Below are positions 6,234 to 41,199 of a stretch of DNA of 64,000 bases, in pieces; within the stretch, counting starts at the first letter, position 1, and each line of letters begins with the position of its first letter. The notes under the pieces were generated by a model. The model searched no databases, was not told the DNA's origin, and saw only the letters and a program-made list of their open reading frames with translations. The translations under genes were made by a program, and so were the position numbers. The stretch is from Candidatus Bathyarchaeia archaeon (lineage in GTDB: Archaea; Thermoproteota; Bathyarchaeia; 40CM-2-53-6): assembly GCA_035656295.1 (NCBI GenBank), contig DASRSU010000025.1, positions 150,132-214,131 of the forward strand, written 5' to 3'.

Positions 6234-6570
6234 CCGCCACTTCGGTAATTCCCAGTTATTCTGCGAGCACCCCTAGAGAATGCTAAGGCAGGACGTCTTC
6301 TCTACAGATGGAGACCTAACCAGTTCGTTTTACAAGAAGAATCGGCGGCGGCCTTGTCGGCTTGTTTTTACTTATTTGCGTAGATTGGATACGGTTAAGC
6401 AAGAATTTGTGGATGCGAGCCGCGCACCCGGGCTATACTGACATGATTCTGTTCATAGTCAACTCGTGTAAATTGGAATTACGAATTGTGGATGCCGACA
6501 AGACTTCGACGTCGTGACGAAGATGTTAACTAACATTTCCCCATAGAATGAGGTTTGGAAAGACTACTTC

Positions 6571-8643: not shown

Positions 8644-9080
8644 TACGTTCGTCTACTAGGATTCAATTGTAATGAGTTCGACAATCGAGTACGATTCAAG
8701 CTAGCGTTTTGGCTGGGAACGTGATAGTCCAAGCGTTCTGCGACAGCCAAGCCACTGTCTCCCATATTATCGTCACGCCGTTCAGAGAATTCGTCTGTTT
8801 ATAGCCGTGGCTCGGCAGTGTGACGACCTAGTCTTCATCGGCTAATAGCGTGACGCGTATCCGCCTGGGCGACGCAACAATTGCAACACCGTTATGACTC
8901 GATTCACAAGATCTCTGTAAGATATCGTCACCACTGATCCCTCCAGATTCGGAATGTCTCAATAGTCACGAGTTACGCTAGCCATGGGTTGCAAGGAAAT
9001 CGCGGTCGGCTCGCCAAACCAGAAGCACATTTTAAGCCAACGTCGGCTGCTCTCGGACGATCATCTCGGTTGAAATCGAT

Positions 9081-10118
9081 TTGCAGGCGTTGATACTTGC
9101 TGGAGGCTTTGCAACGCGGTTACGACCCCTGAGCTGTTCAAAGCCGAAGCTGCTGTTTCCGATCCTGGGTCGTCCTTTGATTGACCATATGATTGACTGG
9201 CTCAACAGAGATGGGGTAGACCAATTGATTTTAGCGGTGAACCATTTGGCGGATAGGCTGAACATTGAACTCGGATCGCGCAGACTAGGTTCGAAGATCA
9301 TATTCTCAGTGGAGAGAACTCCGCTTGGAACCGGAGGCCCGCTAAAGTTGGCGTCTAGACTGTTAGCTTCGAACGCACCGTTAGTAGTTGTGAACGGTGA
9401 CATTGTAAGCGACATCGACTTGCGGAGCGTCCTTAACGTTCACACAGAATCAGGCGCAGAAGCCACCGTAGCTCTCGTACGCGTCCGAGACCCGAAAGCC
9501 TACGGAAGAGCAACCCTTGACGACAAAGATAGAATAGTCAATTTCCGAGAAAAAACAAGCAAGCCGACTCGACCGGCATGGGTCAACGCTGGCGTATACG
9601 TTCTAGAACCCAAAGTCATCAACCGTCTTCCCACCGGCCCAGTAAGCCTCGAGAGACACGTTTTCCCCAGCATCGCCTCAAGAATGAAGATGCAAGGCTG
9701 GAAGCATCGAGGTTACTGGTACGACGTCGGTAAGATCTCCGACTATGTACGTTGTAATCGCGAACTTCTCGCAGACCCGCAACGTCAATCCTTAGCCCGA
9801 AGCGGAAGTGCAAAAACACGAAAGGCCAGAAAACTCTCCCATGTCAGCAAGGGTTGCATTATCAGCGACACCGCCATGCTAGGGCCTTACACGATCCTTT
9901 CGGAAAACGTCCGAGTAGCTCCCCACGCTGCATTGGACAGGACGATCGTATTCGAGCAGACCACAATTGGGAGTAATAGCCGCGTTACCGGCTCTTTGAT
10001 CGGCGAGAACGTCAAAGTCGGAAGAGCAACTCGGATAGGCGCGGGCTCGATCGTTGCCGGGCACGTTACAATTCCCGACCAGACTGTAATAAGACCGGGA
10101 TCAGTAGTTCTCAACTAG
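9081..10118 (+). CDS. sugar-1-phosphate nucleotidyltransferase with C-terminal left-handed beta-helix domain (TTG start)
   Basis: ALILAGGFATRLRPLSCSKPKLLFPILGRPLIDH pyrophosphorylase signature. C-terminal hexapeptide-repeat region (IGSNSRVTGSLIGENVKVG...). 345 aa. Confidence 0.8.
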   Translation: MQALILAGGFATRLRPLSCSKPKLLFPILGRPLIDHMIDWLNRDGVDQLILAVNHLADRLNIELGSRRLGSKIIFSVERTPLGTGGPLKLASRLLASNAPLVVVNGDIVSDIDLRSVLNVHTESGAEATVALVRVRDPKAYGRATLDDKDRIVNFREKTSKPTRPAWVNAGVYVLEPKVINRLPTGPVSLERHVFPSIASRMKMQGWKHRGYWYDVGKISDYVRCNRELLADPQRQSLARSGSAKTRKARKLSHVSKGCIISDTAMLGPYTILSENVRVAPHAALDRTIVFEQTTIGSNSRVTGSLIGENVKVGRATRIGAGSIVAGHVTIPDQTVIRPGSVVLN

Positions 10119-21202: not shown

Positions 21203-21961
21203 CTAACTAAAGAACTGAATCTTGAAAGCTCGACGAGCTGCAACAACCAATGCCAGTGCTATTGGGATCCAAACGAGATCGAGAAGAGTTCCAAAATCGA
21301 AAGCTGCCAAATATAATCCTCCAGCCAAACCTGACGATCCACACGGAGACGTTGTGCAGTAAAACGCTGTAAAGGAATAGACTGGCCAATCTATAAGAAA
21401 GAACACTACTGACTCGAAGACAGTCGCAATGACCATTCCTAACACTACCAAACGAACTGTTTTGGCCCGAAATCGATTGATAATTAATGCCTCCGGAGCC
21501 CTTGCAAGAATAATTCCTGGGACATAGGTCAATGCGAACGCCCCGGGAACTAGGCCAAATAGGAATATGCCGGCAGCTTCACCAACACCCGAGCCGATCG
21601 CAGTCGACCAGAAACTGATACGGCGAGAAAACAAAACAGCAATGGCCATGTAGAATGCTGGAGCCACAGTTATTTCATAAAGAGGGGGCGGCAGTGGGTA
21701 ACCCAGGAGGAGAATGTTCGATAGAAGGGTACCTACGGCGACAAGAGCCGAAAACGCTGCGATCTGTGCGAGACTTATTGTGGGGATCTCTCGACGACTC
21801 TTCGAGACGAGAGATTTGGTTTCGGAAAGCTCTCTATTCTGTGCTGGGATCACGTTTCGGTTGGACATTTTTTGACTTCCCGACGAGGGTTTCGTAAGCT
21901 TAGTTGGCTGAGAATTAGGTCCCGTTGTTTCCTTCGCCGGCATTACCCGGATCAGGTTCAA
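21203..21961 (-). CDS. integral membrane protein (ECF-transporter S-component-like)
   Basis: About 5 to 6 hydrophobic helices after a hydrophilic N-terminal region of about 60 aa. Follows the PurM-like gene on the same strand. Confidence 0.5.
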   Translation of the reverse strand: MNLIRVMPAKETTGPNSQPTKLTKPSSGSQKMSNRNVIPAQNRELSETKSLVSKSRREIPTISLAQIAAFSALVAVGTLLSNILLLGYPLPPPLYEITVAPAFYMAIAVLFSRRISFWSTAIGSGVGEAAGIFLFGLVPGAFALTYVPGIILARAPEALIINRFRAKTVRLVVLGMVIATVFESVVFFLIDWPVYSFTAFYCTTSPCGSSGLAGGLYLAAFDFGTLLDLVWIPIALALVVAARRAFKIQFFS

Positions 21962-22054
21962 AGGGTCGATGGCGATGAAGCCATCCTCTCAGCCAGGTTT
22001 ACCCTAGCTCCCCGTCAAATTCGATGAGTCAGCTGTCTCGTATTTAAGCGCTGA

Positions 22055-27739: not shown

Positions 27740-29185
27740 TTACCGCGAAGACGGGCTGAACCTCGCGTTAAGCAAGTCGCTGGTAGCCCGGGGGCTATCC
27801 GCACTTACACTAGACGAGTACTGAGGTGCCATGCAAGTAATGCTCGAGTCACGCAGGTCTTGCAACACTGCTTGTCTCAGGACTCTGGTTAGCTTCGCGA
27901 CGTCTGACTCGTCCATTGAGTCTGGTCCTACAATGATCCTGTGCGGTTCGCTGAAACTCTCTCTTCGCAGCACTTCGTCCGGATTGTAGCCGAAGCTTGT
28001 AACGAGCTGCTTCAATAGATCCAGTTTGGTAGCCTGTGCTCTGGGCGTGATTGCGAGGTCTGCCTTACGATAGAGGTTGCGATGGAACTCTTCACCGGTT
28101 GACTTGACGTCGTTGTAGAGTTTGTTCTTGTGACCGAACCAGAATTCTACGTATTCTGGATTTACGCCTAGAGCTGAGAGTCTGGTTCGGAAGTAGTACC
28201 GGCAGCTGTGGACGCAGAGCTCGTGTCGTCTCTTGGTTAGGTTCGGATATCCGCACTCCTGGCAATCAGGGCCATGTCGTCTATGGATCCGCCAGCTTGG
28301 ACAACGTTTGATTATGCCTGCGCGGATGTAGAGCGAGTTGACCACGTGCCAGATCTCGCCAGAGGTGACGGGCTGTGCTTGATGGGTTGCGCTTCCTATG
28401 TTTCGTATGAGAGGGCTGTTGTCTCGGAGGGTCTCTGGGGGGAAGAACCTGTTGCCGCGTTGGCGGTCTGCCAGGTAGGCTTTGAGGAGGTCGACGGCTT
28501 CTGCTGGTAGAAAGGTCCAGTGGCCTTGGGTGTCCCAGCCTCTTCCTTTGAGGATCTGGGGTTCGACTCTGACCAGAACCGGTATGATGTTCTGTTCCAA
28601 GTCGTGTTTGACATGCCTGTACTCGAGTTTTGCTAGTGTTGCCGCTCTGAAGCCTCCTAGGGCGAGCAATACGATGATCACCTTTCCCCTCAGGTCGGCC
28701 ATGGCCAGGACTCGCTGCAGTTCTTCCGGACTCGGAGACCGGTCCGGGTAGACGACTGTCCGGGGATACCGTGGAAGATCCAGGCGTAGCTTGTTCGCTG
28801 CATAGAGGGCTTTGACTCCCTTGACATGGTTGGCTCTGGTGCCTGGCGCCAGAGTGTTCGTGTCTTGCAGGTGTCCCATGAAATCGTCGACTAGCTGCGC
28901 GTGTTTGACCAGCATCTTGGACAGGGGGTCGCCGTCTGGTCCCCAGCACTCGAACAGGATCTTGTCAGGCTCGCTATTGATCCATTTTGCGAACCGCCAG
29001 ATTCCGTAGACGTACTGGTAGGCTGTGTGGGGACTGCCGGTCGTGTGACGTTTCAAGTGACGTATCAGCTGAAGCACGGTCTTGTTGCGGAGGCTGAAGT
29101 CGATCAATACTGGGAACTTGGTACGGAAGGCTTGTTCCAGGAACTCTTTGATGCCACGTTCATAGTCCAATTGTTGACTAAGCAT
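27740..29185 (-). CDS. int: tyrosine recombinase / integrase (large, 481 aa)
   Basis: C-terminal catalytic region HSCRYYFRTRLSALGVNPEYVEFWFGH resembles the H-x-x-R...Y box of tyrosine recombinases. Lies at the element edge. The att repeat is embedded in its 3' end (codons SPRAT). Confidence 0.75.
   Translation of the reverse strand: MLSQQLDYERGIKEFLEQAFRTKFPVLIDFSLRNKTVLQLIRHLKRHTTGSPHTAYQYVYGIWRFAKWINSEPDKILFECWGPDGDPLSKMLVKHAQLVDDFMGHLQDTNTLAPGTRANHVKGVKALYAANKLRLDLPRYPRTVVYPDRSPSPEELQRVLAMADLRGKVIIVLLALGGFRAATLAKLEYRHVKHDLEQNIIPVLVRVEPQILKGRGWDTQGHWTFLPAEAVDLLKAYLADRQRGNRFFPPETLRDNSPLIRNIGSATHQAQPVTSGEIWHVVNSLYIRAGIIKRCPSWRIHRRHGPDCQECGYPNLTKRRHELCVHSCRYYFRTRLSALGVNPEYVEFWFGHKNKLYNDVKSTGEEFHRNLYRKADLAITPRAQATKLDLLKQLVTSFGYNPDEVLRRESFSEPHRIIVGPDSMDESDVAKLTRVLRQAVLQDLRDSSITCMAPQYSSSVSADSPRATSDLLNARFSPSSR
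27781..27794. repeat. attL core: direct repeat of the tRNA 3' end
   Basis: tggtagcccggggg is identical to 39590-39603. It lies within the last 18 codons of the integrase ORF. Confidence 0.65.
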
Positions 29186-29282
29186 TGTGGTGTTTCCACC
29201 CTTTCGAGGGTCCTGACGTCTGAACTACTATAAACGCTTTTACACTCATACACCGGTGTGTCGGAACCGAGACGGCGTGCGA

Positions 29283-29588
29283 TTAGGACAACCTCCGCAG
29301 CTCGATGATCGTGGCTCTGTGAATCGTCACGCCGGAGGCCCGGGGCTTATTCCCCTCTTCGCCTGGAATGGCGAAGGTCTCCCAGGTTAGCGTGATCACC
29401 TGGTTGTCCAGGTAGGCGACTCTACCCGTGGTGTCGAGGACTGGCGCTTCACGAAAGCACCTTGGATCTTTGTTGACGAATAATACGTGATCCCAATATT
29501 TGATTGCAACCAAGTCTCCGACGTGGACCCGGGTCTCTGCTGACATGGACTCCTTCAGTGCTGTCCCGCCTGACCCATTTTTCTGCAT
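29283..29588 (-). CDS. hypothetical protein (element)
   Basis: 101 aa ORF co-oriented with int. Confidence 0.35.
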   Translation of the reverse strand: MQKNGSGGTALKESMSAETRVHVGDLVAIKYWDHVLFVNKDPRCFREAPVLDTTGRVAYLDNQVITLTWETFAIPGEEGNKPRASGVTIHRATIIELRRLS

Positions 29589-29776
29589 AGAATACAGCTG
29601 GTGCCATCGTGTGCTGGCCTTTCCCTGCTGGAAGATCTCAGATGCCCGACGAGATCCAAAAGATCGAGAATTGTCTTGGCTAAGACAGGCCTCTCACGGT
29701 GGCAGAGTAGCAGATGCTCTTTGAGTGTCCGAGCGTCGTAGTCCTGCTTGTTGCAGACGGGACACTGACCTTTCAT
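29555..29776 (-). CDS. small zinc-finger protein (C2H2-like)
   Basis: CPVCNKQDYDARTLKEHLLLCH motif. 73 aa. Confidence 0.35.
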   Translation of the reverse strand: MKGQCPVCNKQDYDARTLKEHLLLCHRERPVLAKTILDLLDLVGHLRSSSRERPAHDGTSCILCRKMGQAGQH

Positions 29777-30024
29777 CTTGTCCGAACCTCTAGGTCGACC
29801 AGCTTCGATGGCGTAGCGGGCCGTTTCGCCATGGCGAGTACACTGGACCGCGATCGTTCCAATTCTGTTATCGGTTCGACGATCAAGCGGGCATGCGCAT
29901 CCAGGTAATGCAGCGTGTGAAAACTGGCACAGCTGGTCCTAACGTATCGCTCCCCAGGCTCTATCTCCAACTCGCAGACGTGGCACTGTTGGTACCGAGA
30001 ACCCTGATTGATTCGCACTTTCAT
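29773..30024 (-). CDS. small Cys/His-rich protein (putative Zn-binding)
   Basis: QQCHVCELEIEPGERYVRTSCASFHTLH. Overlapping start and stop codons with its neighbours suggest an operon. Confidence 0.4.
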   Translation of the reverse strand: MKVRINQGSRYQQCHVCELEIEPGERYVRTSCASFHTLHYLDAHARLIVEPITELERSRSSVLAMAKRPATPSKLVDLEVRTR

Positions 30025-31664
30025 TTCTCGGGTTCCTTGATTCGCTCGGGAGAGGTGGCATCGAAGCAGGCTTGGCAGACTAGGAATTCGTGATGGTGAT
30101 CAGGGCGGCGTGGCCCCTCTCTCTCGCATAATGCACAGGACCCTAACTCGACAAAGGGAGGTTCCACCTTGGGCAGAGCTCCGCCGTGACCCGTTTTCGA
30201 GTGAGAAAACACGATGTCACCTGAGCCGGGACCAGTCCCAAACTCGTCCGCTGGCTTGGAGGATAGCCCAAAGTCGGAGTTTGGGGAATCGGTGAGTCCG
30301 GATCCTCCAAGTGGGCGATCTTTGGGCTGGCCTGTCATCGTGTTTTCTTCCCTCAAAACATGCCCTTCGTCTAGGAGCTGCCAGCCCCTCTCCTGGGCCC
30401 AGCTGTCGACGGTGACCTGCTTGGCGTACTCGTCGGCTCTGATGTTCAGCGTCTCGGGGCTGAGCTCTGCGAACCTGAACCTCTGACCCTTCTTCCCAGG
30501 CTTGTTGTCAGGATGCTCCTCGACGTAGCCGTCTAGGCAGAGCCGGTCGACGTGGTCGCGGACCCACTGCTCTCCCTTCCGGACTTGGCGACGAACGTTT
30601 CGGTGGATCTCCTTGATCGTCAGATATTCGTAGCCGGTTACGGTGCCGAAGCTGTCCTTTTCGCTGGCGTCTGTCAGAACAGCGAGAATCGCGTCCTCCT
30701 TGGCAGAGACTCCTGACAAGGATTCGCGGAGACTTGCCTCGGCGAGTGCTCTGACGATCTCGATGTCCTGGGGCTCTGCTACGACGGCGACCGTGAGACC
30801 CTTCCGGGCTTTCCTTCTCTGTTCCTGGTAGAGCCAGGCGACGACGTTGATGCTAGACATCAGCTTCGGGAAGTCCCGACGGCTCTCAATGCTGCTGCTC
30901 GGGTACTCTGCCTTGATCAGATGAGCATAGGGATTCGCAACCTCGTAGGGTTTGAGGCCTTGCAGAAGATCCAGAAGCGCCTTTGTCCTAGGCTCTTCCG
31001 AGTAGTCCTCTGACGGGTCCTCGAATCCATCCGCCTCGTAGTCTAGGACCCTGTTGGTCTGTTCGGCGCTCTCGTCGATCTGCATAGGAATTATCCGGTT
31101 CTCGAACTCGGGATCCTGCATCGATGCGAGCGTTGTCGTGGTGATTACGCTGGGCGTGCCGACGACTTCGATCTCCACCGGCTCTCCGTTGATCACCGTG
31201 CCGAGTCGCAGACGACCCTCGCTGATCAGCAGCTTTGGCGATTGGGAGTTTGTGATGCCTCTCAGCTCGTCGATGAACAGAATCTTGCCTGAGAGGTCGA
31301 TTCTCCGGGGCTGTTCACGCCAAGCCTTGAGCTCAGCTACATATTCCTCGTTGGAGATCTCCTTCCGCATCACGGGTTTCGAAGTGGCCTGTGACTTGGC
31401 CATGTTCTCCAGGTAGGCGCCGGTGATCCTGCTGAACTCGATCACCACGCCCATTCTTCGGAATATGTCGAGGACCCGGTTGACGATCCTTGACTTGCCC
31501 GCGCCGGTGACGCCCTTGACGACCGCGGAAAGGGGCCCCTTGGTGAAGGCCGACAGGCAAACGAGGAACAGCAGCACTTTGTTCGTGTCTTCGCCGGCGA
31601 TCTTTCGGTCGAGATACTCCGTCTGAATTCGTTGCAGAAGATTCGGGTCCTTAGAGTCGAGCAT
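30021..31664 (-). CDS. P-loop NTPase, putative replication initiator/helicase of the element (SF3/AAA+-like), with C-terminal zinc ribbon
   Basis: Walker A KGVTGAGKSR at about residue 55. Walker B ILFIDELRG. Possible motif C VITTTT. C-terminal CALCEREG...CQACF. 547 aa. Confidence 0.7.
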   Translation of the reverse strand: MLDSKDPNLLQRIQTEYLDRKIAGEDTNKVLLFLVCLSAFTKGPLSAVVKGVTGAGKSRIVNRVLDIFRRMGVVIEFSRITGAYLENMAKSQATSKPVMRKEISNEEYVAELKAWREQPRRIDLSGKILFIDELRGITNSQSPKLLISEGRLRLGTVINGEPVEIEVVGTPSVITTTTLASMQDPEFENRIIPMQIDESAEQTNRVLDYEADGFEDPSEDYSEEPRTKALLDLLQGLKPYEVANPYAHLIKAEYPSSSIESRRDFPKLMSSINVVAWLYQEQRRKARKGLTVAVVAEPQDIEIVRALAEASLRESLSGVSAKEDAILAVLTDASEKDSFGTVTGYEYLTIKEIHRNVRRQVRKGEQWVRDHVDRLCLDGYVEEHPDNKPGKKGQRFRFAELSPETLNIRADEYAKQVTVDSWAQERGWQLLDEGHVLREENTMTGQPKDRPLGGSGLTDSPNSDFGLSSKPADEFGTGPGSGDIVFSHSKTGHGGALPKVEPPFVELGSCALCEREGPRRPDHHHEFLVCQACFDATSPERIKEPEK

Positions 31665-32111
31665 CTAGCATCCTTCCAGTTCTTTCGCGTCGACGATCTG
31701 GAGGTCCAGCAGCCAGCTGCGAGTCGCGGGGTCGAAGCTGAATGGTGCAACTCCCTCTCGCTTCAGCGCTCGCCTGTTGATCCGTTTGATGCAGCGCAGG
31801 ACCTTTTTCGGATACGCGTTCATCCTGAGAGCGAGCTCTGTCGTGGCCCTCTGCGACTTCTCCAGGAACTTCCGCATCAGGTCGCGCTCGAACTCTTCGC
31901 GGACGTAGGGGCCGATGACGATACTTGGCTGCCGCGCCTTCAGAATCACGGCCATGTTCCGCGCCAGACCGCCTAGGACCCGGACCTCTGCTCTCAGCGA
32001 GCGGATCTCGGAGAGGATCGGAGCTGTCGCATCCAATACGCGTCTCCGGCGCGTCCCCTTGCTTCCGCGTCGAGTCTTAGCCAAGAGCGATCTCTCCATG
32101 CGGTTTGGCAA
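31665..32111 (-). CDS. hypothetical basic protein, translationally coupled upstream of the ATPase
   Basis: 148 aa, Arg/Lys-rich. Its stop directly abuts the ATPase ATG. Confidence 0.45.
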   Translation of the reverse strand: MPNRMERSLLAKTRRGSKGTRRRRVLDATAPILSEIRSLRAEVRVLGGLARNMAVILKARQPSIVIGPYVREEFERDLMRKFLEKSQRATTELALRMNAYPKKVLRCIKRINRRALKREGVAPFSFDPATRSWLLDLQIVDAKELEGC

Positions 32112-32393
32112 AGAACCGGGGTCTTTTGCTAGCAGAAGCTGAGAGGACGCCCGCGTCGTCTCCGACTCCCGCGAACTGTGGTCGCTCGCAACCGCGAATT
32201 TTCATAGTCTAAGTGTCTCCGAGTTTTTCGGGCGGTCGGGAATGTGTTTCAAGAAACAGTGCTGGCGGTGATTGTCGCGGCCGAGTTCCGAACCAAGCGT
32301 AGACTTGATAGTTGGAGGAACCGTAAGTGCCCCTCGTGATTCTAGGCCTGAAACTTCGCCCGAAACAACTACACGCTCTAGGCGGGTGTTCCA

Positions 32394-32621
32394 CTAGTAC
32401 AGCCTCCTCCTGCAAGGATAGACGTGTCCAGTCCTCGAGCACTCCGGTCCTAGAAGTCGACCGTTAACGATCCGGGCCCGTTGTAGAGGCGAGAACCCGC
32501 AACACTCGCACGTCAGAGGCCCGTACCCGTATTTGGCTAGGATCTCTCGCGCCTGCATCTGGGCTTGACGGAGCCTGGCCTCACGCAATCGTTCGCGAAG
32601 CCTCTGGATCGAAGGAATCAA
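32394..32621 (-). CDS. small zinc-ribbon protein
   Basis: CECCGF...CSRTGHVYPC. 75 aa. Overlaps the next ORF by 4 nt. Confidence 0.35.
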   Translation of the reverse strand: MIPSIQRLRERLREARLRQAQMQAREILAKYGYGPLTCECCGFSPLQRARIVNGRLLGPECSRTGHVYPCRRRLY

Positions 32622-32863
32622 GTCTTGCCCCTGTCCGGTCCTGGTCCATGACTGAACCAGCAGTGGTAACGATGATTCTCGAAGCCGAGCGGGCTCAGCT
32701 CGTCAAAGTTCTCACCACAGTATGGACAGGTCTGTGCGATGACCGTTAGCGTTTTATCCGAGGATTGTCTAACAGTCATTTCTGACCTCTTCCCTGTTCG
32801 CGGGACTTGGCGGTGTCCAGCTGGTCGAAGGAATTGCCACAGTACGGCCAGAGGCAACAGCAA
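32618..32863 (-). CDS. small zinc-ribbon protein
   Basis: CPYCGENFDELSPLGFENHRYHC. 81 aa. Confidence 0.4.
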   Translation of the reverse strand: MLLPLAVLWQFLRPAGHRQVPRTGKRSEMTVRQSSDKTLTVIAQTCPYCGENFDELSPLGFENHRYHCWFSHGPGPDRGKT

Positions 32864-33200
32864 AATTCTTTAGCGGGGCCGGGCCTATGCGTGGCTGACC
32901 ACCTCTTCTTCCTGTTCGGCTCTTGGCGGGGTCGAAACCTGAAGATGGTCACGGGGCGTGGGATCCTCTTCCCCGCCCTGAATCATTCTAACAGTAGACC
33001 ATGCTATGGCCTCCATTCGTTGTACCGCGTGCAGCCCTAGTACTGTCATCGGAGTGTGGGCTGTCCCGCCAATTGTTTTGCAGGCGGCTTTGTTTGCTGT
33101 GTAGTAGTGAGCTCTGTATGATTCGAATCCTCTTCGATCTCCTCAAAGGACACGGAGCCACCGCCGATGAGATCTGCAACGGCCCTGTTTTTCGCGGCCG

Positions 33201-33563
33201 TCATGGCCGGATCTCTCCGTCGGACCTTTGGGCCGAGGTGACGGGCTGCGGTGCCTCGATGGCTCTGCCTGTTTCGTTGCCGTTGGTGATGAAAACACGA
33301 CGTCGCACATCGCCTCCAGTGGTTCGGACCCTGAAACTCCTGTACCGCGGGTCCTGCAACGCTAGCATCCCCAAGTAGCGGCGGGCACGGTGTTCGGTCA
33401 CCTTGTTGGCGTCGATCTCGACAACGTGCCGTGGCGGGATCTTCTTTACCACGGCTCTGAACTCGTCAAAGTATTCGCCTGGTCTGGACCGGCTAGGCAG
33501 TTTGATCTCTGGAAAGGTGCCGAGAAGAAGGCTGGTTTTGCTTCGTTTCATTTTCCTCATCAA
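33201..33563 (-). CDS. hypothetical protein (element)
   Basis: 120 aa, basic N-terminus. Confidence 0.3.
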   Translation of the reverse strand: MMRKMKRSKTSLLLGTFPEIKLPSRSRPGEYFDEFRAVVKKIPPRHVVEIDANKVTEHRARRYLGMLALQDPRYRSFRVRTTGGDVRRRVFITNGNETGRAIEAPQPVTSAQRSDGEIRP

Positions 33564-33602
33564 TATATACGAGAAGGGGTCGGGGGACTCTTTCGGTCAC
33601 GC

Positions 33603-34364
33603 ATGATCATTCCGTTCTCCAGTTTTGCGACGAACCTTGAGGTAGAGGGTACGTGCAACAAGTTTGCAAGGGCAGGCTTCAAGGTTGAACGACCACTGGC
33701 TCAGGGAACCCAGGGCTTCTGCAAAGTGACTCTTGACGCTGACCGCCAGCTGCGCCTACAGATCTACGGGACTCGACGGGTCCTGATCTACGCCCACGGA
33801 CCCGAAGACGAGGCGACGGCCAAAAAGTTGCTCAAGCGCTACGCGGTCACAGTCGACAATGCGCCGCTGAGCTTTGAGGACTACAAGGTCTATCCTGACA
33901 AGAAACAGGCTGCTGAGGATCTGATGGCGCTCTGCCAGATACTGCTCGTTGACAACCTGAACCTGGAAGTCGCGCTGGGTCTACTCGCCAGAGACCTCTC
34001 AGACGGTTCAGACAGGAGAGTGATGACAGAGTACGCGAAATCTCTTCATGATCTCACGAGGACGCTGTTCCGGTTGCGTCAACAGGACCCGTTGGCGCCA
34101 ATATCCCCCGCCGTGATCGAGAGTCTTGATCCTCAGAACAAAAGGGCAGACTGGATTCGTACTAATAGTCTGCCGGTTCCAACTGGAGCCTTCACCCAGG
34201 CGCTGCGAACGGCAGCCGCCACTCTCAGAGATCTCAGCCAGGACCCGACCGGCGTTTCAGAACAGTTGCGGACCCAGCCTGTCCACGACTTTACAGGGGT
34301 CTTCCGACGTGACGCTCTCCAGAGTTTTCAAAAGCTTGCCAAACACAGCGTGGCCGAAGGGTGA
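33603..34364 (+). CDS. hypothetical protein (element, plus-strand island)
   Basis: ATG at 33603 (MIIPFSS...) avoids overlap with the minus-strand ORF. 253 aa. No motif recognised. Confidence 0.4.
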   Translation: MIIPFSSFATNLEVEGTCNKFARAGFKVERPLAQGTQGFCKVTLDADRQLRLQIYGTRRVLIYAHGPEDEATAKKLLKRYAVTVDNAPLSFEDYKVYPDKKQAAEDLMALCQILLVDNLNLEVALGLLARDLSDGSDRRVMTEYAKSLHDLTRTLFRLRQQDPLAPISPAVIESLDPQNKRADWIRTNSLPVPTGAFTQALRTAAATLRDLSQDPTGVSEQLRTQPVHDFTGVFRRDALQSFQKLAKHSVAEG

Positions 34365-34370
34365 TCTCGG

Positions 34371-34637
34371 ATGCCAAGTATCGTAAAGCCTCTCGAAAGC
34401 TTCGATGGCCGAATCATTGGACTGAGACAAGTTTCAGTCGGCCCTTTCATAACTCAGCCTTACACTGAGATCATGATAACGCGGGGCGTCGATTTCGCGG
34501 ACGAACTCTACATACTTGACCAGCCGATCGAGACGGTCCCGCAGGTTTGCATGTTGAAGAGGCACCGGTTCGACAGGCACCATTCACGCATTCTGAGAAT
34601 CGTGGAACACATTGACCACCTAAGCAAGTCAAACTAG
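34371..34637 (+). CDS. hypothetical protein (element)
   Basis: 88 aa, 6 nt after the preceding plus-strand ORF. Confidence 0.35.
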   Translation: MPSIVKPLESFDGRIIGLRQVSVGPFITQPYTEIMITRGVDFADELYILDQPIETVPQVCMLKRHRFDRHHSRILRIVEHIDHLSKSN

Positions 34638-35617
34638 ATCCTGTAACCTAGATGCTGCTTTCAACCCCTCGTGACACCCGCATGTTCAAAATCCTCTACT
34701 CGCTTTACAGCGTAGCATTCCTACTAGTGCTCTACAAGGTGCCACTTACGATCCAGAGCCGTCGCCCTTGAACTCGGAGTTAAGCCAGCCCGGATAGAAT
34801 CAGAGTTCTATGCTGTCATGCGAAACTTGCGAGACATCGCAGAAGAGGCCTGGAATGACAAGAAACTTTTCTTCGACAAGCTCGGTTGGAAGCAGAGCTG
34901 GCAGGGCGGGCCTTATCGCCGCGCCCTCGACTCTCGACTAGTTCAGCGGGAGTCTGATCTCGATTGCGGGTAGCATGGCAAAATCCCTGGACGAGTTTAG
35001 AAGCCTCTGACAGATGTGCCAAGTGGCACTCCGCAGGAGCGTGGCAAGCAGAAACTCTTGGTACGGGACACTAGTCGAGGCTACATCGTGGAAACGATCC
35101 AGGAATGAGTCAGGAGAACGTGATTATCAAGGCTTGATAATTGTGCAAGCCAAGCGACACCGGCTAGGACGAAGTTGTTGTGTTCCCAGGCCTGCGGATC
35201 ACCCGATTCGTCCAGGTATAGAATGTACAAGATCTTGCTTCGGAGTCGCAAACAGAACTCGATAATAAAGGCAGATGCAACCCAGTACGGTTTTTACGCC
35301 GTAGCGGACCGCCGAGGCAGCCCTCTGGATCGCACTTAGAATCTTGTAACCTCAGAATGTAAACATTGTGGCTCCCGACCGTCCTAGCGGTTTGGTGAAG
35401 CTAAAGATCCAATGCCAACAGAGCCTTGACTAGCTAGGCCTCTGTGATGTGGACCATGGACGACTCTCCGGAGTCCTAGAGGTTGAACAACAGAGAAGCG
35501 TGAACGTGAATGGCAAAGTAATGCTGGACAGCCAACGTTTCAGTAGCCTCGTGCCATGTGGCAGAAACTGTTCCGGCGATGGTTGCTAGGACCCGTCTTG
35601 CAGAAGCGAGCGTGTTC

Positions 35618-36115
35618 TCAGCTGGATGATGTAATGGGATGGATGGTCCTTTCTTTTAGCCGACGTTCCGCCCAATCCTTCTCGATCATCGCCTGACGCT
35701 TCAGAACGTCCTCTAACTGGTCGGTCATCCAGAGCTGCTCGAGGTCTGGCAGGAACCGTGATAGGACGGCGAGGCTGCTGACGATTCTCGCTAGTAGGCT
35801 GCTTCGAAGCTCCGGTTTGCCTGCATTGTTAGAGTCGTGATACATCCTCCAGGCCTCGCGCATGACTAACGTGATCCGGTCGTGGATCTCCTGAAGGAGT
35901 TTAGAGTGCATGTCTCGGGATGATTGTGTGATGCAGGCGTTTCCGTCGCGGACTTCAGCGATGGCGCGGCTGACTGTCGACTGGTCAACCTGCAATGATT
36001 CGGCGATCTCGACTTGGGTCCAGCCTTTGAGGTGCAGCTGGTAGATCTGTTCGCGACGCTTCTCGACTTCCCGCCGCTTCAACGACTGGCTAGAAGTATG
36101 CGAGTTTACGCTCAA
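35618..36115 (-). CDS. HTH DNA-binding protein (sigma-70 region-4 / small-terminase-like HTH)
   Basis: LKGWTQVEIAESLQVDQSTVSRAIAEV helix-turn-helix. 165 aa. Confidence 0.55.
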   Translation of the reverse strand: MSVNSHTSSQSLKRREVEKRREQIYQLHLKGWTQVEIAESLQVDQSTVSRAIAEVRDGNACITQSSRDMHSKLLQEIHDRITLVMREAWRMYHDSNNAGKPELRSSLLARIVSSLAVLSRFLPDLEQLWMTDQLEDVLKRQAMIEKDWAERRLKERTIHPITSSS

Positions 36116-36140
36116 GACTCATTCCGTGGAATGCGCATAT

Positions 36141-36377
36141 TCAGCCCAGTCTTCCAGCCGCGAGGTCTTGATGTGCCTGTTTCACGGTTCGGAGGTGTAC
36201 ATGGGGCTGCAACAGTTTCCGGGCCTCAAGCTGGATTCTCGCTATTTTCACTACAAGCGCGAGCCGTGTGCTCGGCCGCGTCCAGGGGAGCATGTCGAGT
36301 AGGCGTTCTGACTCGTATACGAGCTGTGTGAATCTTAGATGTCTCGAGGACTCGTCCAGGCTTGACATGGGCGCCAT
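36141..36377 (-). CDS. hypothetical small protein
   Basis: 78 aa ORF co-oriented with its neighbours. Confidence 0.25.
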   Translation of the reverse strand: MAPMSSLDESSRHLRFTQLVYESERLLDMLPWTRPSTRLALVVKIARIQLEARKLLQPHVHLRTVKQAHQDLAAGRLG

Positions 36378-36404
36378 ACTATTGTTGTCAGGCTGGATCA
36401 GTTC

Positions 36405-37187
36405 TCAGTTTCTTGTCCATCGCTGGTGCTCGCTACACCAGGTCCAGCCGCGGCTTTCGCGCACAGGTACGGCTGACTCACGGTATCGGGCTCGGATGCT
36501 TTGAAGAGCTCGTTCATGCCGGGCACGTTCTTCTTCCTCCATATCGTCAAGGTCGTCGGCGTGTAACCGTCTGTTGTCAGGGTCGTCCTCGGCCCGAATT
36601 ACCTTCTCTGCGCGAGTGTATGCCTGTTGTGCTGGCGGCGCCGGATAACCGGGCCGACCCCAGAACCCTGTTCGTCGACGCTGGCTCCTCCGACGGTAAT
36701 TGGGCCGATGAGGAAAATCGTCAGCGTAGATTCCTAGTGCGGCTATGTCGTCGCTGCCGGGCTTGAAGCCTGCCATCGGACCCGCCTCTGTAATCGGGCT
36801 TCTCGCGAAATGTTGCACCGTCTCTTCGACTCCGCGTGGAATACCGACTCCCATCTGCCTCGCGAAGTCTATGAATCTCATTCGGTCGTGTCCCATCCTC
36901 CCACCGGGGCCGTAGTCGATAACTGTGGCGCCGGGTCCGATGGTTGGTCCGTTCGCGAATGGTGGCCTGTACGCGGCTGCAAGCGTGTTGACGGTGCACA
37001 TGCTTGACTGACCTCCAGCGGACTCGTGAACGTTGACGGGGAGGCCCATTATCGACATCGGCCGTGACTCTTGGATCCGTCTCGATGCGCCCAGGACTCT
37101 ACCGACGAGCTCGTTTCGTTCTGCGAGTCTGGCTCTTACTTCTTCCGGCAACGAGGTTGCAGTGATCATTCCTGACCATTCTTGCAT
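36405..37187 (-). CDS. hypothetical protein (element)
   Basis: 260 aa. Gly/Pro-rich middle with an acidic C-terminal stretch (DDLDDMEEEE). Confidence 0.45.
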   Translation of the reverse strand: MQEWSGMITATSLPEEVRARLAERNELVGRVLGASRRIQESRPMSIMGLPVNVHESAGGQSSMCTVNTLAAAYRPPFANGPTIGPGATVIDYGPGGRMGHDRMRFIDFARQMGVGIPRGVEETVQHFARSPITEAGPMAGFKPGSDDIAALGIYADDFPHRPNYRRRSQRRRTGFWGRPGYPAPPAQQAYTRAEKVIRAEDDPDNRRLHADDLDDMEEEERARHERALQSIRARYRESAVPVRESRGWTWCSEHQRWTRN

Positions 37188-37310
37188 CTTCGATCGTTAC
37201 TAGGCTAGCGTTCGTGATTGAAAACTTTTGTGGCGGATGCGCTGCGTGCAGGTTGGGCGTATCCGAACCGGATCTCGTGTAATCTTCGGGGCGTACTGCG
37301 ACAATTATTG

Positions 37311-37856
37311 TCATTCATTCCACAGGTTTAGGTCTGCATGTTCACGTAACGCATTGTACAAGCATTCTTCTAGTATTGTCTTGTCAAAGCCTCCAGCACG
37401 ACATGAGTCATAGTCGCAGGATTCGCGGTATAGTACACGTGCACTCGCCTCGGAATAATTCTCAGGAGGATTCATTGCGAACGAGCTCCCGTAGACGTGG
37501 TAGACGTCGATCTCTTTTCCATTCAGCTGTGCGACTATGTCCCCCTCGTCGTGCTTTTTCGAAAGCGCTACAATCTGCGCGACCGCACGGTCAAACTCTT
37601 TCTTGCTGACATGCATTTCTAGCATGCTCCTTGAAAAGTGTTTGAAACCCAGGACTGCTGGAGCACTGCAGAGCCGGCAGATCGTCGTCCGGGGCCACGC
37701 CGGCTGTTCTACGCCGCATTTCTGGCACTTCTTCTCGACCACGAGCGGGTCTCCATTGCAGGATCCAATAGGGCCCCTCCTACCGTTCAACTGCTGCTCT
37801 TGATCTCCAGCTCGATGGTCTTCATCGTTCTCGGCCGTGTTGGGGGTACGGATCAT
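37311..37856 (-). CDS. hypothetical Cys-rich protein
   Basis: CQKCGVEQPAWPRTTICRLC zinc-ribbon-like N-terminal part. 181 aa. Confidence 0.45.
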   Translation of the reverse strand: MIRTPNTAENDEDHRAGDQEQQLNGRRGPIGSCNGDPLVVEKKCQKCGVEQPAWPRTTICRLCSAPAVLGFKHFSRSMLEMHVSKKEFDRAVAQIVALSKKHDEGDIVAQLNGKEIDVYHVYGSSFAMNPPENYSEASARVLYRESCDYDSCRAGGFDKTILEECLYNALREHADLNLWNE

Positions 37857-37977
37857 CCAGGCAGACGATTACTACAAGCATGAGCGTGTGACCGACCCTG
37901 ACTTTTTCCAGAACGATGATGTCCGGTGACTCGAAAAAGGGGGAGTTTGAGTTTTGTCGTGTTGTCAAGATTGCATG

Positions 37978-38526
37978 TCAGCCTGATGCTGTACTATAGG
38001 CCGCGAACACGGTTTGGAAGGAGACGGATCCAAGGGCCCCGGTCCGCGCGGCGCTGAGTTGCAGTGTCAAGATGGTGCTGGTTGTGCCGGGCGTCAACAT
38101 CAAACATCCGGTCACGGTTGGTGTGCCGGGACAGGCAGCTGTCCCGAGCTTGCTGGAAAAGTCCCATGTCAAGGTTACACCGTTCGGCAAGCCCGGATTG
38201 GTGGTGAGTGATTCGACGCCTGGAGTGGTGCTATCAACGATCCAGATGTTGGTCAGGCCGGTGTTGACAATGCTGATCTGGTGAGTGCGGCTTGTTGTCT
38301 GCTGGACATCGCCCCATGTCAGGGCTGTAAGTGTTCCGCCCTTCGTAACGTCGTTGACTGACATGCCTGGGGCGCCGGTGATCGTGACTGTTGATGGTAC
38401 GATGAAGTTGCTGAGGAAGACCGCGTATGCTCCCGTGGTGATGGTAGCTGCGATTACTGTTGCGAGCAGTATCTTAACGAGTTTCTTCACTGTTTTTTCC
38501 ACCTTCGATTGGAAGCTTTCCAACAA
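37978..38526 (-). CDS. secreted/membrane-anchored Thr/Gly-rich beta-rich protein (possible structural or surface protein of the element)
   Basis: N-terminal hydrophobic segment KILLATVIAATITTGAYAVFL, followed by a Thr/Gly/Val-rich region of about 150 aa. Confidence 0.5.
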   Translation of the reverse strand: MLESFQSKVEKTVKKLVKILLATVIAATITTGAYAVFLSNFIVPSTVTITGAPGMSVNDVTKGGTLTALTWGDVQQTTSRTHQISIVNTGLTNIWIVDSTTPGVESLTTNPGLPNGVTLTWDFSSKLGTAACPGTPTVTGCLMLTPGTTSTILTLQLSAARTGALGSVSFQTVFAAYSTASG

Positions 38527-38589
38527 CCATAACCTCGTCCAGCCTCTGCCGGGAGCTTCGCGGGGATACGTCCGCGGTTTTTGCGGAAC

Positions 38590-38868
38590 CTACAAGACCG
38601 GGAAGTAGAGGGCTTCCTTACCGCAGCGGCGTTTGGCCAAAAACCCTTTCTTCTGGAGAAAGCTGAGGGCACGGTCCATCTGGTCCGGGCTCAGCTGCAG
38701 GACTCTGGCACGATGGAATCGGAGGAGCTCAACCCGGCTGAAAGGGTACAAGTGTTCTAGGAAGAAGAGGTAGAGTTGGACCCGTGGATCCTCGAGGGTT
38801 CCCACGAGTCTTGCCAGGGCTCCTAGGAGTCTTTCCGATGAGAGTTTCGCAATGGCCCGGTCGGTCAA
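38590..38868 (-). CDS. winged-helix transcriptional regulator-like protein
   Basis: 92 aa, wHTH-like (LSPDQMDRALSFLQKKGFLAKRR). Confidence 0.45.
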   Translation of the reverse strand: MTDRAIAKLSSERLLGALARLVGTLEDPRVQLYLFFLEHLYPFSRVELLRFHRARVLQLSPDQMDRALSFLQKKGFLAKRRCGKEALYFPVL

Positions 38869-39086
38869 CCCGCCACCTCCCGAACGGTGCCCGGGACCCG
38901 GGCAGCATCATGCTGGAGGCCTATTGTGCCATCCAGTACGTGGGGGCCCTCCTCCGGCAGATTCCATAGAACAACCGTTCCGTCTTCCTGCATGTGCTGG
39001 ATCAATTTGATCGAGACCTGGCAGGACTCGCAATAGTCTGATGCGCCGCGAGGCACATTCAGGTTGCAACCCCAGCAGACCGTCAT
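38865..39086 (-). CDS. small zinc-ribbon protein
   Basis: CWGCNLNV...CESCQ. 73 aa. Confidence 0.4.
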   Translation of the reverse strand: MTVCWGCNLNVPRGASDYCESCQVSIKLIQHMQEDGTVVLWNLPEEGPHVLDGTIGLQHDAARVPGTVREVAG

Positions 39087-39250
39087 TCTTCGAACTCCCA
39101 GAACATGGCTCCGCCAGCAGTGTATCCACAGTCATTGCAGCTGAACGATTCCAGTTCTTGATCTAGCTCAAGATGTGTCGAGCCGCATCCTGGACAGGTC
39201 GAAATGGGCTTCCAGGACCAGGTTATTGTCGGCGTGCGTATGCTCATTTC
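39083..39250 (-). CDS. small zinc-ribbon protein (55 aa; below the ORF-track cutoff)
   Basis: Hand translation gives MSIRTPTITWSWKPISTCPGCGSTHLELDQELESFSCNDCGYTAGGAMFWEFEE. Overlaps the downstream ORF by 4 nt (atga). Confidence 0.35.
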   Translation of the reverse strand, partial: EMSIRTPTITWSWKPISTCPGCGSTHLELDQELESFSCNDCGYTAGGAMFWEFEE

Positions 39251-39327
39251 AAACACTCCGGTGTATTAGTGTACGCGTGTAGTACAACTTATAAGTGCTT
39301 CGGTGTGAGAGTGCAGGAACACCGGAA

Positions 39328-39483
39328 ATGGCACGACTGAACCTCCTCCTGGAGGACGACCTAGCCAAGAAGCTGCGGCTAAGAGCCGTCGAACTGTACG
39401 ATGGAGAGAAAGGGGCCCTCAGCAGGGCGATATCTGACGCGGTAGAGCTCTGGCTGGAGAAACCTGCTTCAAGGAAGAAATGA
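39328..39483 (+). CDS. ribbon-helix-helix (CopG-like) protein
   Basis: MARLNLLLEDDLAKKLRLRAVELYDGEKGALSRAISDAVELWL is a beta-strand plus two helices typical of RHH regulators. Lies next to attR. Confidence 0.45.
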   Translation: MARLNLLLEDDLAKKLRLRAVELYDGEKGALSRAISDAVELWLEKPASRKK

Positions 39484-39589
39484 GAAAAAGGGGGGATGTG
39501 GCATCAGCTGTGTTCCTCCGAAGAAGGATCGGTGGAGCCCTTGTTCTGATCAGTTTCAGCCTTGTCTGGTAGCTTTCTAGTGTAAGTCG

Positions 39590-39603
39590 TGGTAGCCCGG
39601 GGG
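39590..39603. repeat. attR core, equal to the 3' terminal 14 nt of the tRNA gene
   Basis: Identical to 27781-27794. Confidence 0.65.
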
Positions 39604-39709
39604 AGATTCGAACTCCCGTCGATGGGTTTCCTCCCGGAATCTGGTCCAAAGCCCATCATTGACCGGGCCATTTGTCGAGGCCCTTGCTAGTCCACTACAC
39701 CACCGGGCT
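39590..39709 (-). tRNA. tRNA gene with encoded CCA, about 120 nt, probably containing intron(s); isotype not resolved by hand
   Basis: Reverse complement ends ...GGGAGTTCGAATCTCCC-CCGGGCT-A-CCA: a 5 bp T-stem, a TTCGAAT T-loop, and a 7 bp acceptor stem pairing with the 5' AGCCCGG. Excess length and internal helices (GGGCC...GGCCC; ATGGG...CCCAT enclosing 25 nt) suggest one or two introns. Confidence 0.6.
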
Positions 39710-40134: not shown

Positions 40135-41199
40135 TTGCTCCAGTCAAGTATGTCGGCAGGAGAGCTTACGGCAGTTCGGCAGCCCATAGGAACTGGACTA
40201 AGAGTATACGTCGTCGGCGTCGGGGGTGCGGGGACAAATCTTCTTTCCCACGGAATCGACCGGGGGATGAACCCGAATAACTGTGTCGCCGTAAACAACG
40301 ATACCGGTCAGCTTGCGTGTTGTGCTGTTCCAAACAAAGTCTATCTCGGGAACCCGGTGTCAGAGAGTGATGCCCAAAGCCTTCAACCAAGACAAGTCGC
40401 AAGGTTCCTGCAATCTTCTGCCCAAAGGGTCGCGCCTTTTACTCAGGGTTCGGACTTCACAATATTGGTGGCCGGTCTGGGCGGCGTGATCGGGACTGGG
40501 ACGGCACCTGTAATCGCCCAGTCTCACAGGACACAAGTCAAACCGGTCGTTGCTATCGTCGCTATTCCCTTCATCCATGAAAGAGAGAGACGATTTCTGG
40601 CTGTGCGGGGTCTCAAAAAGATGGTTGAAGCCTGCGACTGCACCATAGTTGTTGACAACGGAATCGAAAGAGAGCCTTTCCAGTCATCTTCTCGCGAGGC
40701 CGATGTAACAGCCTCGTCAGCCATGCATACGCTCTCAGAAATCCTATCTGCAGGAGGTCGAGCACTGGGCCAGAAAATTCTCGACGCTCTCTCAATAGGG
40801 GATATAGCAACCGTCTGTAGCACCACCTGGACCCACAGGGATACCATCCAGTCGACCGTTTTCAATGCCCTACGGTCTCCATCGGCAAAAATGCCACTCA
40901 ATCAAACTAGAGGAGCAGTCCTAGTGTACACGGGCCCAACCCCGTTAACCACTACCCAGGCTGCAAAGGCTTACGAAACTATCGTCTCCATGGTCGGCCA
41001 CAACGTTAGGTTCGTGTTCGGAGGAATAACCAGACCCTCTGAGCCAAGGGTTTCAATCTTCTTATCAGGCTACTCATACGACAATGCCCTGGTAGCGTTC
41101 GTGGATTTCATAGAGAACATATACGATCTGGAGTACGGGCAAGATCGATCAACCTTAGCAATACGCTTGGAAATTCCTCTTTTCGAGATGGAAAACTAG
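40135..41199 (+). CDS. FtsZ/tubulin-superfamily protein, divergent (thaumarchaeal FtsZ-like)
   Basis: VYVVGVGGAGTNLL (GGGGN-like) and the tubulin signature LGGVIGTGTAPVIAQ (GGGTGTG). The T7-loop NxDFAD catalytic region is not conserved. Confidence 0.65.
   Translation: MLQSSMSAGELTAVRQPIGTGLRVYVVGVGGAGTNLLSHGIDRGMNPNNCVAVNNDTGQLACCAVPNKVYLGNPVSESDAQSLQPRQVARFLQSSAQRVAPFTQGSDFTILVAGLGGVIGTGTAPVIAQSHRTQVKPVVAIVAIPFIHERERRFLAVRGLKKMVEACDCTIVVDNGIEREPFQSSSREADVTASSAMHTLSEILSAGGRALGQKILDALSIGDIATVCSTTWTHRDTIQSTVFNALRSPSAKMPLNQTRGAVLVYTGPTPLTTTQAAKAYETIVSMVGHNVRFVFGGITRPSEPRVSIFLSGYSYDNALVAFVDFIENIYDLEYGQDRSTLAIRLEIPLFEMEN

Follow-up and report, generated by a model that had tools for sequence, protein, structure and literature searches.

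A 64,000-nucleotide stretch of a soil Bathyarchaeia genome (contig DASRSU010000025.1, positions 150,132 to 214,131; here called the window, whose own coordinates are used throughout) was analyzed computationally. The window very probably carries a cryptic, plasmid-like integrative element of approximately 11.8 kb, which encodes the Xer/Cre-like tyrosine recombinase that inserted it at the 3' end of a gene for tRNA-Gln(UUG). The element, counted with one copy of the direct repeat that bounds it, occupies 27781-39589, and its length of 11,809 bp is the start-to-start distance between the two repeat copies. It is an ordinary kind of archaeal genome island, and the integrase family to which its recombinase belongs is large and seemingly undescribed.

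Boundaries of the integrated element

An earlier note on this DNA had proposed that a 14-bp direct repeat of a tRNA 3' end bounds an inserted segment, and this proposal was borne out. The 14-mer TGGTAGCCCGGGGG is present in exactly two copies in the window, at 27781-27794 and 39590-39603, both on the plus strand, and the count remains two with a tolerance of one mismatch; the 14-mer had no match in any of 100 dinucleotide-preserving shuffles, and the right copy ends the tRNA gene. The sequence aagtcg stands beside both copies, and the single indel that the earlier note had described in this flank was seen directly as an additional c on the left (aagtcgc at 27774-27780, against aagtcg at 39584-39589). 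The repeat also continues inward in imperfect form, with 21 of 25 nucleotides identical between 27781-27805 and 39590-39614. The G+C content is 0.55-0.59 between the repeats and 0.46-0.52 in the flanks, and the shift is found at both ends.

The arrangement is that of the attL/attR model, in which the direct repeats share one orientation, one lying in an intact tRNA gene and the other being a displaced 3' fragment. The attR core (39590-39603) forms the final 14 nt of the intact tRNA-Gln gene. The attL core (27781-27794), a displaced copy of the tRNA 3' end, lies inside codons 464-469 of the 481-codon integrase open reading frame (ORF), where it starts with the last base of codon 464 and stops after the first base of codon 469; it was assigned from the repeat and from the end of homology of the integrase (int) module.

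Three independent lines of sequence comparison place the predicted left junction exactly at 27781. In blastn searches, the int modules of the metagenomic loci L068 and L073 (78% DNA identity) align as far as 27781 and end exactly there. At the protein level, the four closest homologues, P0002, P0003, P0004 and the L073 product, have in common the motif ...S(V)S..(x)PRAT, after which all of the C-termini differ; PRAT is the translation of CCCCGGGCTACC, and so the protein divergence starts at the CCA end. Finally, L068 is identical to the tRNA 3' end over 25 nt, which shows that the 14 bp in the window are the perfect remnant of a tRNA-derived att site.

The tRNA-Gln target gene

The reading of the right repeat copy as the CCA, discriminator and acceptor 3' strand of a tRNA, also made in the earlier note, agrees with the Rfam match, with ARAGORN when introns are allowed, and with the fold of the spliced tRNA-Gln. 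The gene is 120 nt long and lies on the minus strand (39590-39709). Its last 14 nt, the right repeat copy, consist of three T-stem nucleotides, the 7-nt acceptor 3' strand, the discriminator A and CCA. The Rfam tRNA model matched 39593-39669 (minus strand) with 31.5 bits, reaching the gathering score. ARAGORN in its default mode reported no tRNA anywhere in the 64 kb window; with introns allowed, it returned a 120-nt gene with ends at 39709 and 39590. Compared with the intronless tRNA-Gln genes of related loci, the gene contains a 26-nt insertion in the D-arm (39659-39684) and an 18-nt insertion at the canonical 37/38 position (39627-39644). Removal of both left 76 nt, which ARAGORN folded as a canonical tRNA-Gln(ttg) and which match the intronless tRNA-Gln of related loci. 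The gene therefore probably carries two introns, and the default tRNA finders miss it because of them. A forced intron-mode call of ARAGORN, tRNA-Gly(tcc) with a 36-nt intron, was dropped on comparison with the intronless tRNA-Gln relatives.

The host gene adjoining the tRNA (40135-41199, plus strand) encodes a GTPase of the Tubulin/FtsZ family (Pfam PF00091, E 7.5e-20), and related proteins are labelled FtsZ in their sources. A D-arm insertion is likewise present in the tRNA-Gln gene of L157, a contig on which the neighbouring FtsZ-like protein is 86% identical to that of the window. The ENA ZJ_forest assembly (L157) and the Logan SRR12347814 assembly (L158) both break within the tRNA-Gln gene (L157 position 1 and L158 position 1; approximately 39671-39682 in the window). 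This double break could come from repeats shared with other tRNA-Gln genes or from heterogeneity at the integration site.

The integrase

The tyrosine recombinase (481 aa; 27740-29185, minus strand) was identified by profile, structure model and invariant residues. Residues R180, K213, H326, R329, H352 and Y357 are invariant in 41 sequences. Tyr372 is also invariant among them, and the nucleophile could be either tyrosine. The integrase-family profile matches the archaeal XerA structures 4a8e and 5hxy (E 1e-8), and the NCBIfam XerA model matches the integrase in part. The AlphaFold2 model (mean pLDDT 80) comprises a catalytic domain and a core-binding domain, a two-domain fold without an arm-binding domain. 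In a Foldseek search with this model, the integron integrase VchIntIA, XerA, Brujita Int, XerH, Cre and lambda Int were the top matches, with E values from 1e-7 to 1e-4, and SSV1 Int (3vcf, 3uxu) matched only with E values of 0.5-0.9. There was no match to PF16795 (Phage_integr_3) in the window integrase; its homologues have marginal partial matches to this family beneath a stronger PF00589 match. As modelled, then, the integrase is a Xer/Cre-like and not an SSV-like tyrosine recombinase.

The integrase subclade of the window has a Cys-rich insertion, CPSWRIHRRHGPDCQECGYPNLTKRRHELC, in the catalytic domain (28210-28300, minus strand; approximately residues 296-325). The insertion is missing from more distant homologues in the alignment, and AlphaFold2 confidence is low there. 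It may be a zinc-binding loop.

A tRNA-Gln-associated integrase family

The integrase belongs to a family of more than 432 confirmed metagenome stretches, 80 of which were fetched, and 86 related loci (L067-L152) were analyzed. In 77 of the 86 (approximately 90%), the int 3' end has a tRNA-Gln acceptor/CCA motif no more than a few tens of bases away. In 46 loci int points the same way as the tRNA, adjoins a sense 3' fragment and is hence distal to the tRNA, as in the window. In 31 loci int instead runs antisense into tRNA-Gln sequence; ARAGORN found a tRNA in 19 of these, 17 of them tRNA-Gln, and the protein tails, such as ...GSPGEIRTPV, are translated T-arm. Complete related elements with direct repeats of 12-19 bp were found in L085 (11 kb), L116, L101 and L150, the last of which has the arrangement of the window, with an intact tRNA-Gln(CUG) at the far end. 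No description of a tRNA-Gln-specific integrase family of Bathyarchaeia was found in the literature searched.

The earlier note had further placed the integrase at the tRNA-distal end of the element, with attP overlapping the int 3' end. This anatomy stands, on the strength of the homology stop at 27781, the divergence after PRAT and the family-wide association with tRNA-Gln. The int stop codon precedes the core in 40 of the 46 same-orientation loci, and so the overlap of ORF and att site in this orientation is peculiar to the subclade of the window.

Architecture of the att sites and a proposed mechanism

Just inside the direct repeats, repeat searches and palindrome statistics revealed a perfect 12-bp terminal inverted repeat, with its left arm ACTTACACTAGA at 27803-27814 (imperfect arm 27787-27814) and its right arm TCTAGTGTAAGT at 39576-39587 (imperfect arm 39576-39603). 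The terminal inverted pair (28 nt, 79% complementary) ranks first among the inverted repeats of the 12 kb region. Perfect inverted repeats of 12-13 nt also arise by chance elsewhere in that region, and the position and recurrence of the terminal pair count for more than its length. The right end of the element (39577-39612) matches the L067 int tail at 92%.

On the plus strand, the reconstructed attP reads TCTAGTGTAAGT-cg-TGGTAGCCCGGGGG-ctatccgc-ACTTACACTAGA. When reconstructed, the attP sites of the window, L085, L116 and L101 each form an imperfect palindrome (22-26 of 36 positions), and all four have the dyad axis CCC-GG-GGG. None of 500 shuffles reached the attP palindrome score, and the corresponding attB sites are at background and not palindromic. 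Palindromic attP-like sites were also found in four distant family members. As judged from these reconstructions, the layout is that of the classic core site of simple tyrosine recombinases, with inverted arms and an asymmetric spacer of 6-8 bp. The arms are likely the integrase binding sites, and CCCCCGGG the putative crossover region.

A mechanism can be proposed on this basis. In the circular form, attP would overlap the last int codons and, on the tRNA-sense strand, would read AGTGTAAGTGCGGATAG-CCCCCGGG-CTACCACGACTTACACT, with an 8-bp spacer between two imperfect inverted arms of 17 bp each. Integrase subunits would bind the arms and synapse attP with the end of the tRNA gene, ...AGTTCGAATCT-CCCCCGGG-CTACCA-GCGACTT..., and strand exchange would take place within the common CCCCCGGG(CTACCA) segment. 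This would leave the tRNA intact at attR (39590-39603), with the displaced 14-bp copy at attL (27781-27794), and the palindrome arms of the element would become the terminal inverted repeats just inside the direct repeats. DNA formerly downstream of the tRNA would now give int its last 13 codons and stop. The mechanism predicts an empty-site attB of CGCGTTAAGCAAGTCGC-TGGTAGCCCGGGGG-AGATTCGAACTCCCGTCG, in which the flank GCGACTTGCTTAACG would stand straight after CCA, and an attP junction in the circle of GCTTTCTAGTGTAAGTCG-TGGTAGCCCGGGGG-CTATCCGCACTTACACTAGACG. As the catalytic domain is untouched, the integrated copy could in principle still excise the element, which may still be mobile.

Orientation of the core

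The split into two orientations is found even between proteins that are 76% identical, those of the window and of L067 (P0005). On the int-sense strand, the window has ...TAGCCC-CC-GGGCTACCA where L067 has ...TAGCCC-GG-GGGAGATTCGAA. A speculative and rather doubtful reading of this difference is that the central GG/CC dinucleotide mainly sets the polarity of attP, so that two substitutions (CCCGGGGG to CCCCCGGG) would flip the orientation in which the element enters. If true, this would explain why integrases of 76% identity have opposite core orientations and why both arrangements are common (46 versus 31 loci); it would also be a natural example of a site-specific integrase changing its integration polarity, and would offer a compact int-att cassette for Bathyarchaeia.

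Inversion of the element by recombination at the CCCGGG centre was also considered as the source of the two orientations, and was rejected, as it would leave a broken tRNA 3' end. In L067, the sequence downstream of int (8840-9200) lacks an intact tRNA; it has a 23-nt antisense fragment of tRNA-Gln and, beyond it, two more remnants that resemble T-arms. This looks like the debris of repeated integration events.

Empty-site and circular-form searches

The host context was examined through relatives of the flanking FBPase gene, which were searched in 185,579 species genomes and gave 66 loci, 23 of them from Bathyarchaeia. The earlier note had suggested a comparison with thaumarchaeal element collections; the host belongs to the Bathyarchaeia, not the Thaumarchaeota, and the nearest FBPase relatives are metagenome-assembled genomes (MAGs) of soil Bathyarchaeia. 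Genes of the element stand beside FBPase in none of the 23 Bathyarchaeia relatives.

Several observations weigh against an integrated, mobile element. The direct repeat is only 14 bp long. The integrase of the window scores 22.4 bits with Pfam PF00589, below the cut-off of 27.1; its homologues P0018, P0020 and P0034 score 38-49 bits, over the cut-off, with a match that ends at approximately residue 355. The intron borders of the tRNA-Gln gene were placed by alignment, not by a bulge-helix-bulge motif. No empty site was found among the 23 Bathyarchaeia FBPase loci, where FBPase-RPE is all that is shared with the window and tRNA-Gln, the FtsZ-like gene, an integrase and an ATPase are all missing from the neighbourhood; the FBPase relatives are at most 69-72% identical, and none is a sufficiently close relative. 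An exact look-up of the 304 aa FBPase ORF gave no match, and the sole match of the 287 aa FBPase gene call was a Logan contig (SRR12347814) of the same population, which carries the element. L157 keeps the synteny of the FtsZ-like gene and tRNA-Gln, and its contig, like that of L158, ends inside the tRNA. Metagenomes yielded no exact match to AAGTCG(N)TGGTAGCCCGGGGGAGATTCG, the pattern expected at an empty site or attR, and the pattern of the circular attP junction had no match in IMG/VR. Finally, one cargo gene, encoding a DUF3800 protein, is truncated, so the element may be decaying.

One rival reading is a decayed, immobilized remnant, unable to excise and now a fixed genomic island. The DUF3800 gene is frameshifted as well as truncated, and neither a free form nor an empty site was detected. 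However, the junction searches were limited by the data, so that the missing junctions are no real test. Moreover, the two 14-bp repeats do not differ at any position, there is no mismatch in the 12-bp terminal inverted repeats, and the integrase ORF has its full length and every invariant residue. A fixed remnant is thus a possible but unlikely description of the element.

Cargo genes

The cargo, as read from sequence comparison, is typical of mobile elements: an AAA+ MCM/Orc1-like ATPase, a helix-turn-helix protein, and a mosaic relation to other soil elements. The ATPase module (30060-32221) is 87% identical at the DNA level to L153 and L154, from two other soil samples, and the int module (27781-29261) is 74-79% identical to L067, L068 and L073, which are different contigs from those that share the ATPase module.

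The ATPase itself (547 aa; 30021-31664, minus strand) has a Walker A motif, GxxGxGKS, and a disordered C-terminus. It was recognized from weak AAA_16 and AAA_30 matches and from the predicted fold (AlphaFold2 mean pLDDT 75), for which MCM subunits, Orc1 and RuvB were the top Foldseek matches in the PDB (E 2e-10, with TM scores of only 0.35-0.40). The protein has no sequence-family assignment; homologues carry PF27228. The AAA+ fold of what the earlier note had called a replication ATPase thus held, and on these weak matches and low TM scores a replication role for the modelled protein is reasonable but not proven. Distant bacterial homologues are located on plasmids. In the Enterobacter plasmid NZ_CP074161.1 (L159, 49096-51973), the gene of an ATPase homologue (26% identity) immediately precedes a xerC-like tyrosine recombinase gene and overlaps with it. 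The pairing of ATPase and recombinase may be conserved across domains.

Directly upstream of int, on the same strand, lies a small ORF of 87-101 aa (29283-29588, minus strand). Searches with tblastn found it in this place and orientation in at least 10 loci, including L067, L068, L075, L076, L081, L123, L132, L135, L146 and L148. The ORF has no Pfam, PHROG or NCBIfam match, and its conserved place makes it a candidate accessory or directionality factor. Two small Cys-rich ORFs of 73 and 83 aa follow (29555-30024, minus strand), both in common with L068. The zinc ribbons listed earlier among the cargo were recovered in part: weak C2H2 zinc-finger matches were obtained for the 73 aa ORF (29555-29776) only, and the others rest on cysteine patterns.

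Beyond the ATPase, profile searches found no detectable homology for ORFs of 148, 75, 81 and 120 aa on the minus strand and of 324 and 88 aa on the plus strand (31665-35022). They are followed (35153-35332, minus strand) by a DUF3800-VI RNA motif at 35278-35332 (Rfam RF02915, 47.1 bits against a cut-off of 35) and then by the truncated, frameshifted DUF3800 remnant at 35153-35297, which covers the first approximately 48 codons. The remnant was recognized by tblastn with the intact DUF3800 protein of L153, a locus (6003-6853) that has the motif before an intact gene. The helix-turn-helix DNA-binding protein of the earlier note was found in a 165 aa ORF (35618-36115, minus strand), which matched Pfam HTH_23 above the cut-off (E 1.5e-5) and PHROG DNA-binding families; the ribbon-helix-helix protein that the note had also listed was not confirmed by a Pfam search of the window proteins. 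Profile searches gave no family assignment for ORFs of 260 and 181 aa (36405-37856, minus strand). A 182 aa protein (37978-38526, minus strand) has an N-terminal hydrophobic segment and a Thr/Ser-rich body and is possibly a secreted or surface protein; it has only a weak DUF6133 match and no PHROG match. The ORF list ends, close to the tRNA, with small ORFs of 92 and 73 aa on the minus strand and 62 aa on the plus strand (38590-39483), the region of the unconfirmed ribbon-helix-helix candidate. For most cargo ORFs, searches of PHROGs, NCBIfam, PADLOC and PDB sequences returned nothing useful. A scan with a sigma-70 promoter and terminator model, which is not applicable to archaea, was uninformative.

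With so many ORFs lacking detectable homologues, the element might instead be the provirus of a small unrecognized archaeal virus (e.g., spindle-shaped or pleomorphic), integrated by the same mechanism. Small archaeal viruses have short capsid proteins, which are difficult to recognize and could escape the tools used here. The hydrophobic segment of the 182 aa protein would also suit a virus, and four distant integrase relatives lie on IMG/VR contigs. However, generic helix-turn-helix matches aside, no protein matched a structural or packaging family of PHROG; there was no terminase, portal or capsid match; and neither the integrase nor the ATPase had a match among 50,697 phage and virus records. 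A provirus is therefore an improbable alternative to a plasmid-like element.

C-terminal rewriting of the integrase

The earlier note had also predicted that integration rewrites the integrase C-terminus, and reconstruction supports this. The reconstructed free form has 496 aa and ends ...PRAT-TTYTRKLPDKAETDQNKGSTDPSSEEHS, whereas the integrated form has 481 aa and ends ...PRAT-SDLLNARFSPSSR; the two differ after T468, with the last 13 residues and the stop supplied by host DNA. The exchanged residues start at 469, approximately 110 residues beyond Y357. Family conservation stops near residue 447, and in the model residues 447-481 lack secondary structure, with pLDDT values under 50. After integration, a single ORF still holds every catalytic residue and the whole folded part (to approximately residue 447). 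As modelled, only a non-conserved, predicted-disordered tail is replaced, and this is not a 'suicidal' integrase of the SSV type.

The rewriting is real but most likely without functional consequence. As the tail is non-conserved, predicted to be disordered and far from the catalytic residues, the overlap of ORF and attP is probably a by-product of a compact int-attP module. The conserved protein tails "SSVS" and "KSMNS.L" are best read as translations of the attP DNA arms.

It could be argued that the swap of the C-terminus (496 versus 481 aa) is a switch of recombination direction, a mild version of the 'suicidal' logic of SSV-type integrases, given that attP truly lies within the integrase ORF and that the free and integrated forms differ after T468. 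In other tyrosine recombinases, namely lambda Int and Cre, the C-terminal tail regulates activity between subunits. However, the stretch concerned is neither conserved nor predicted to be structured; the post-PRAT tails of integrated relatives are mutually unrelated and 10-30 aa long, as random read-through would give; and in most same-orientation loci (40 of 46) the stop codon comes before the core. A directional switch is very unlikely.

Least credible of all is that the repeat is coincidental, or merely conserved integrase coding sequence without any insertion: it is short, and its sequence is kept in the coding region of close homologues, but shuffling never reproduced it, its second copy is exactly a tRNA 3' end, homology and protein tails break exactly at its edge, the same motif accompanies 90% of family members, and the G+C content shifts at both ends.

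Relation to known elements

The closest parallels are the classical (type II, pNOB8-type) archaeal elements and the 'cryptic integrated elements' of Thaumarchaeota (Krupovic et al. 2019 PMC6563490; Badel et al. 2021 PMC8371274). Like these, the element of the window has a tyrosine recombinase, integration at a tRNA 3' end, short attL/attR repeats and a putative replication-type ATPase as cargo; it has no recognizable virion genes, and its integrase retains the catalytic domain after integration. Unlike type II elements, it has a Bathyarchaeia host and an integrase from a family that is dedicated to tRNA-Gln and abundant in metagenomes, its attP overlaps the last int codons instead of being fully separate, and its repeat is very short (12-19 bp across the family).

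With the SSV-type (type I, 'suicidal') integrases of fuselloviruses, pTN3 and pT26-2 (Badel et al. 2020 PMC7253208), the element shares an attP that is a tRNA 3' fragment within the integrase ORF (in the subclade of the window only), so that part of the protein is translated att site. The SSV type differs in that the gene is split into non-functional Int(N) and Int(C), whereas here the exchange affects no more than 13 terminal residues, which are not conserved; the window integrase also lacks PF16795, and its model matches XerA, IntI and Cre at E values of approximately 1e-7, compared with 0.5-0.9 for SSV1 Int. The XerA/dif and Cre/loxP systems have the same two-domain fold without an arm-binding domain, and the element-side site resembles theirs, with inverted arms around an asymmetric spacer of 6-8 bp. 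Unlike in those systems, the partner attB (the tRNA end) is not palindromic, and the reaction would be integration of a mobile element, not resolution of chromosome dimers.

The understanding of archaeal integration is unchanged by these results. The element is, however, a clear case of mobile DNA in soil Bathyarchaeia, a lineage without cultured members and with few described mobile elements. It points to an integrase family (more than 430 metagenomic loci) that is almost always found at tRNA-Gln and whose att core is very short and attP palindromic, and it yields a search rule for Bathyarchaeia MAGs, in which a fragment of the tRNA-Gln 3' end beside this integrase marks an integrated element. 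Attention is also drawn to intron-bearing tRNA-Gln genes that standard tRNA finders overlook, and the compact integrase-att module could later become a genetic tool.

In the host region upstream of the element, a TPP riboswitch (Rfam RF00059, 67.7 bits) was found at 21912-22024 on the minus strand.

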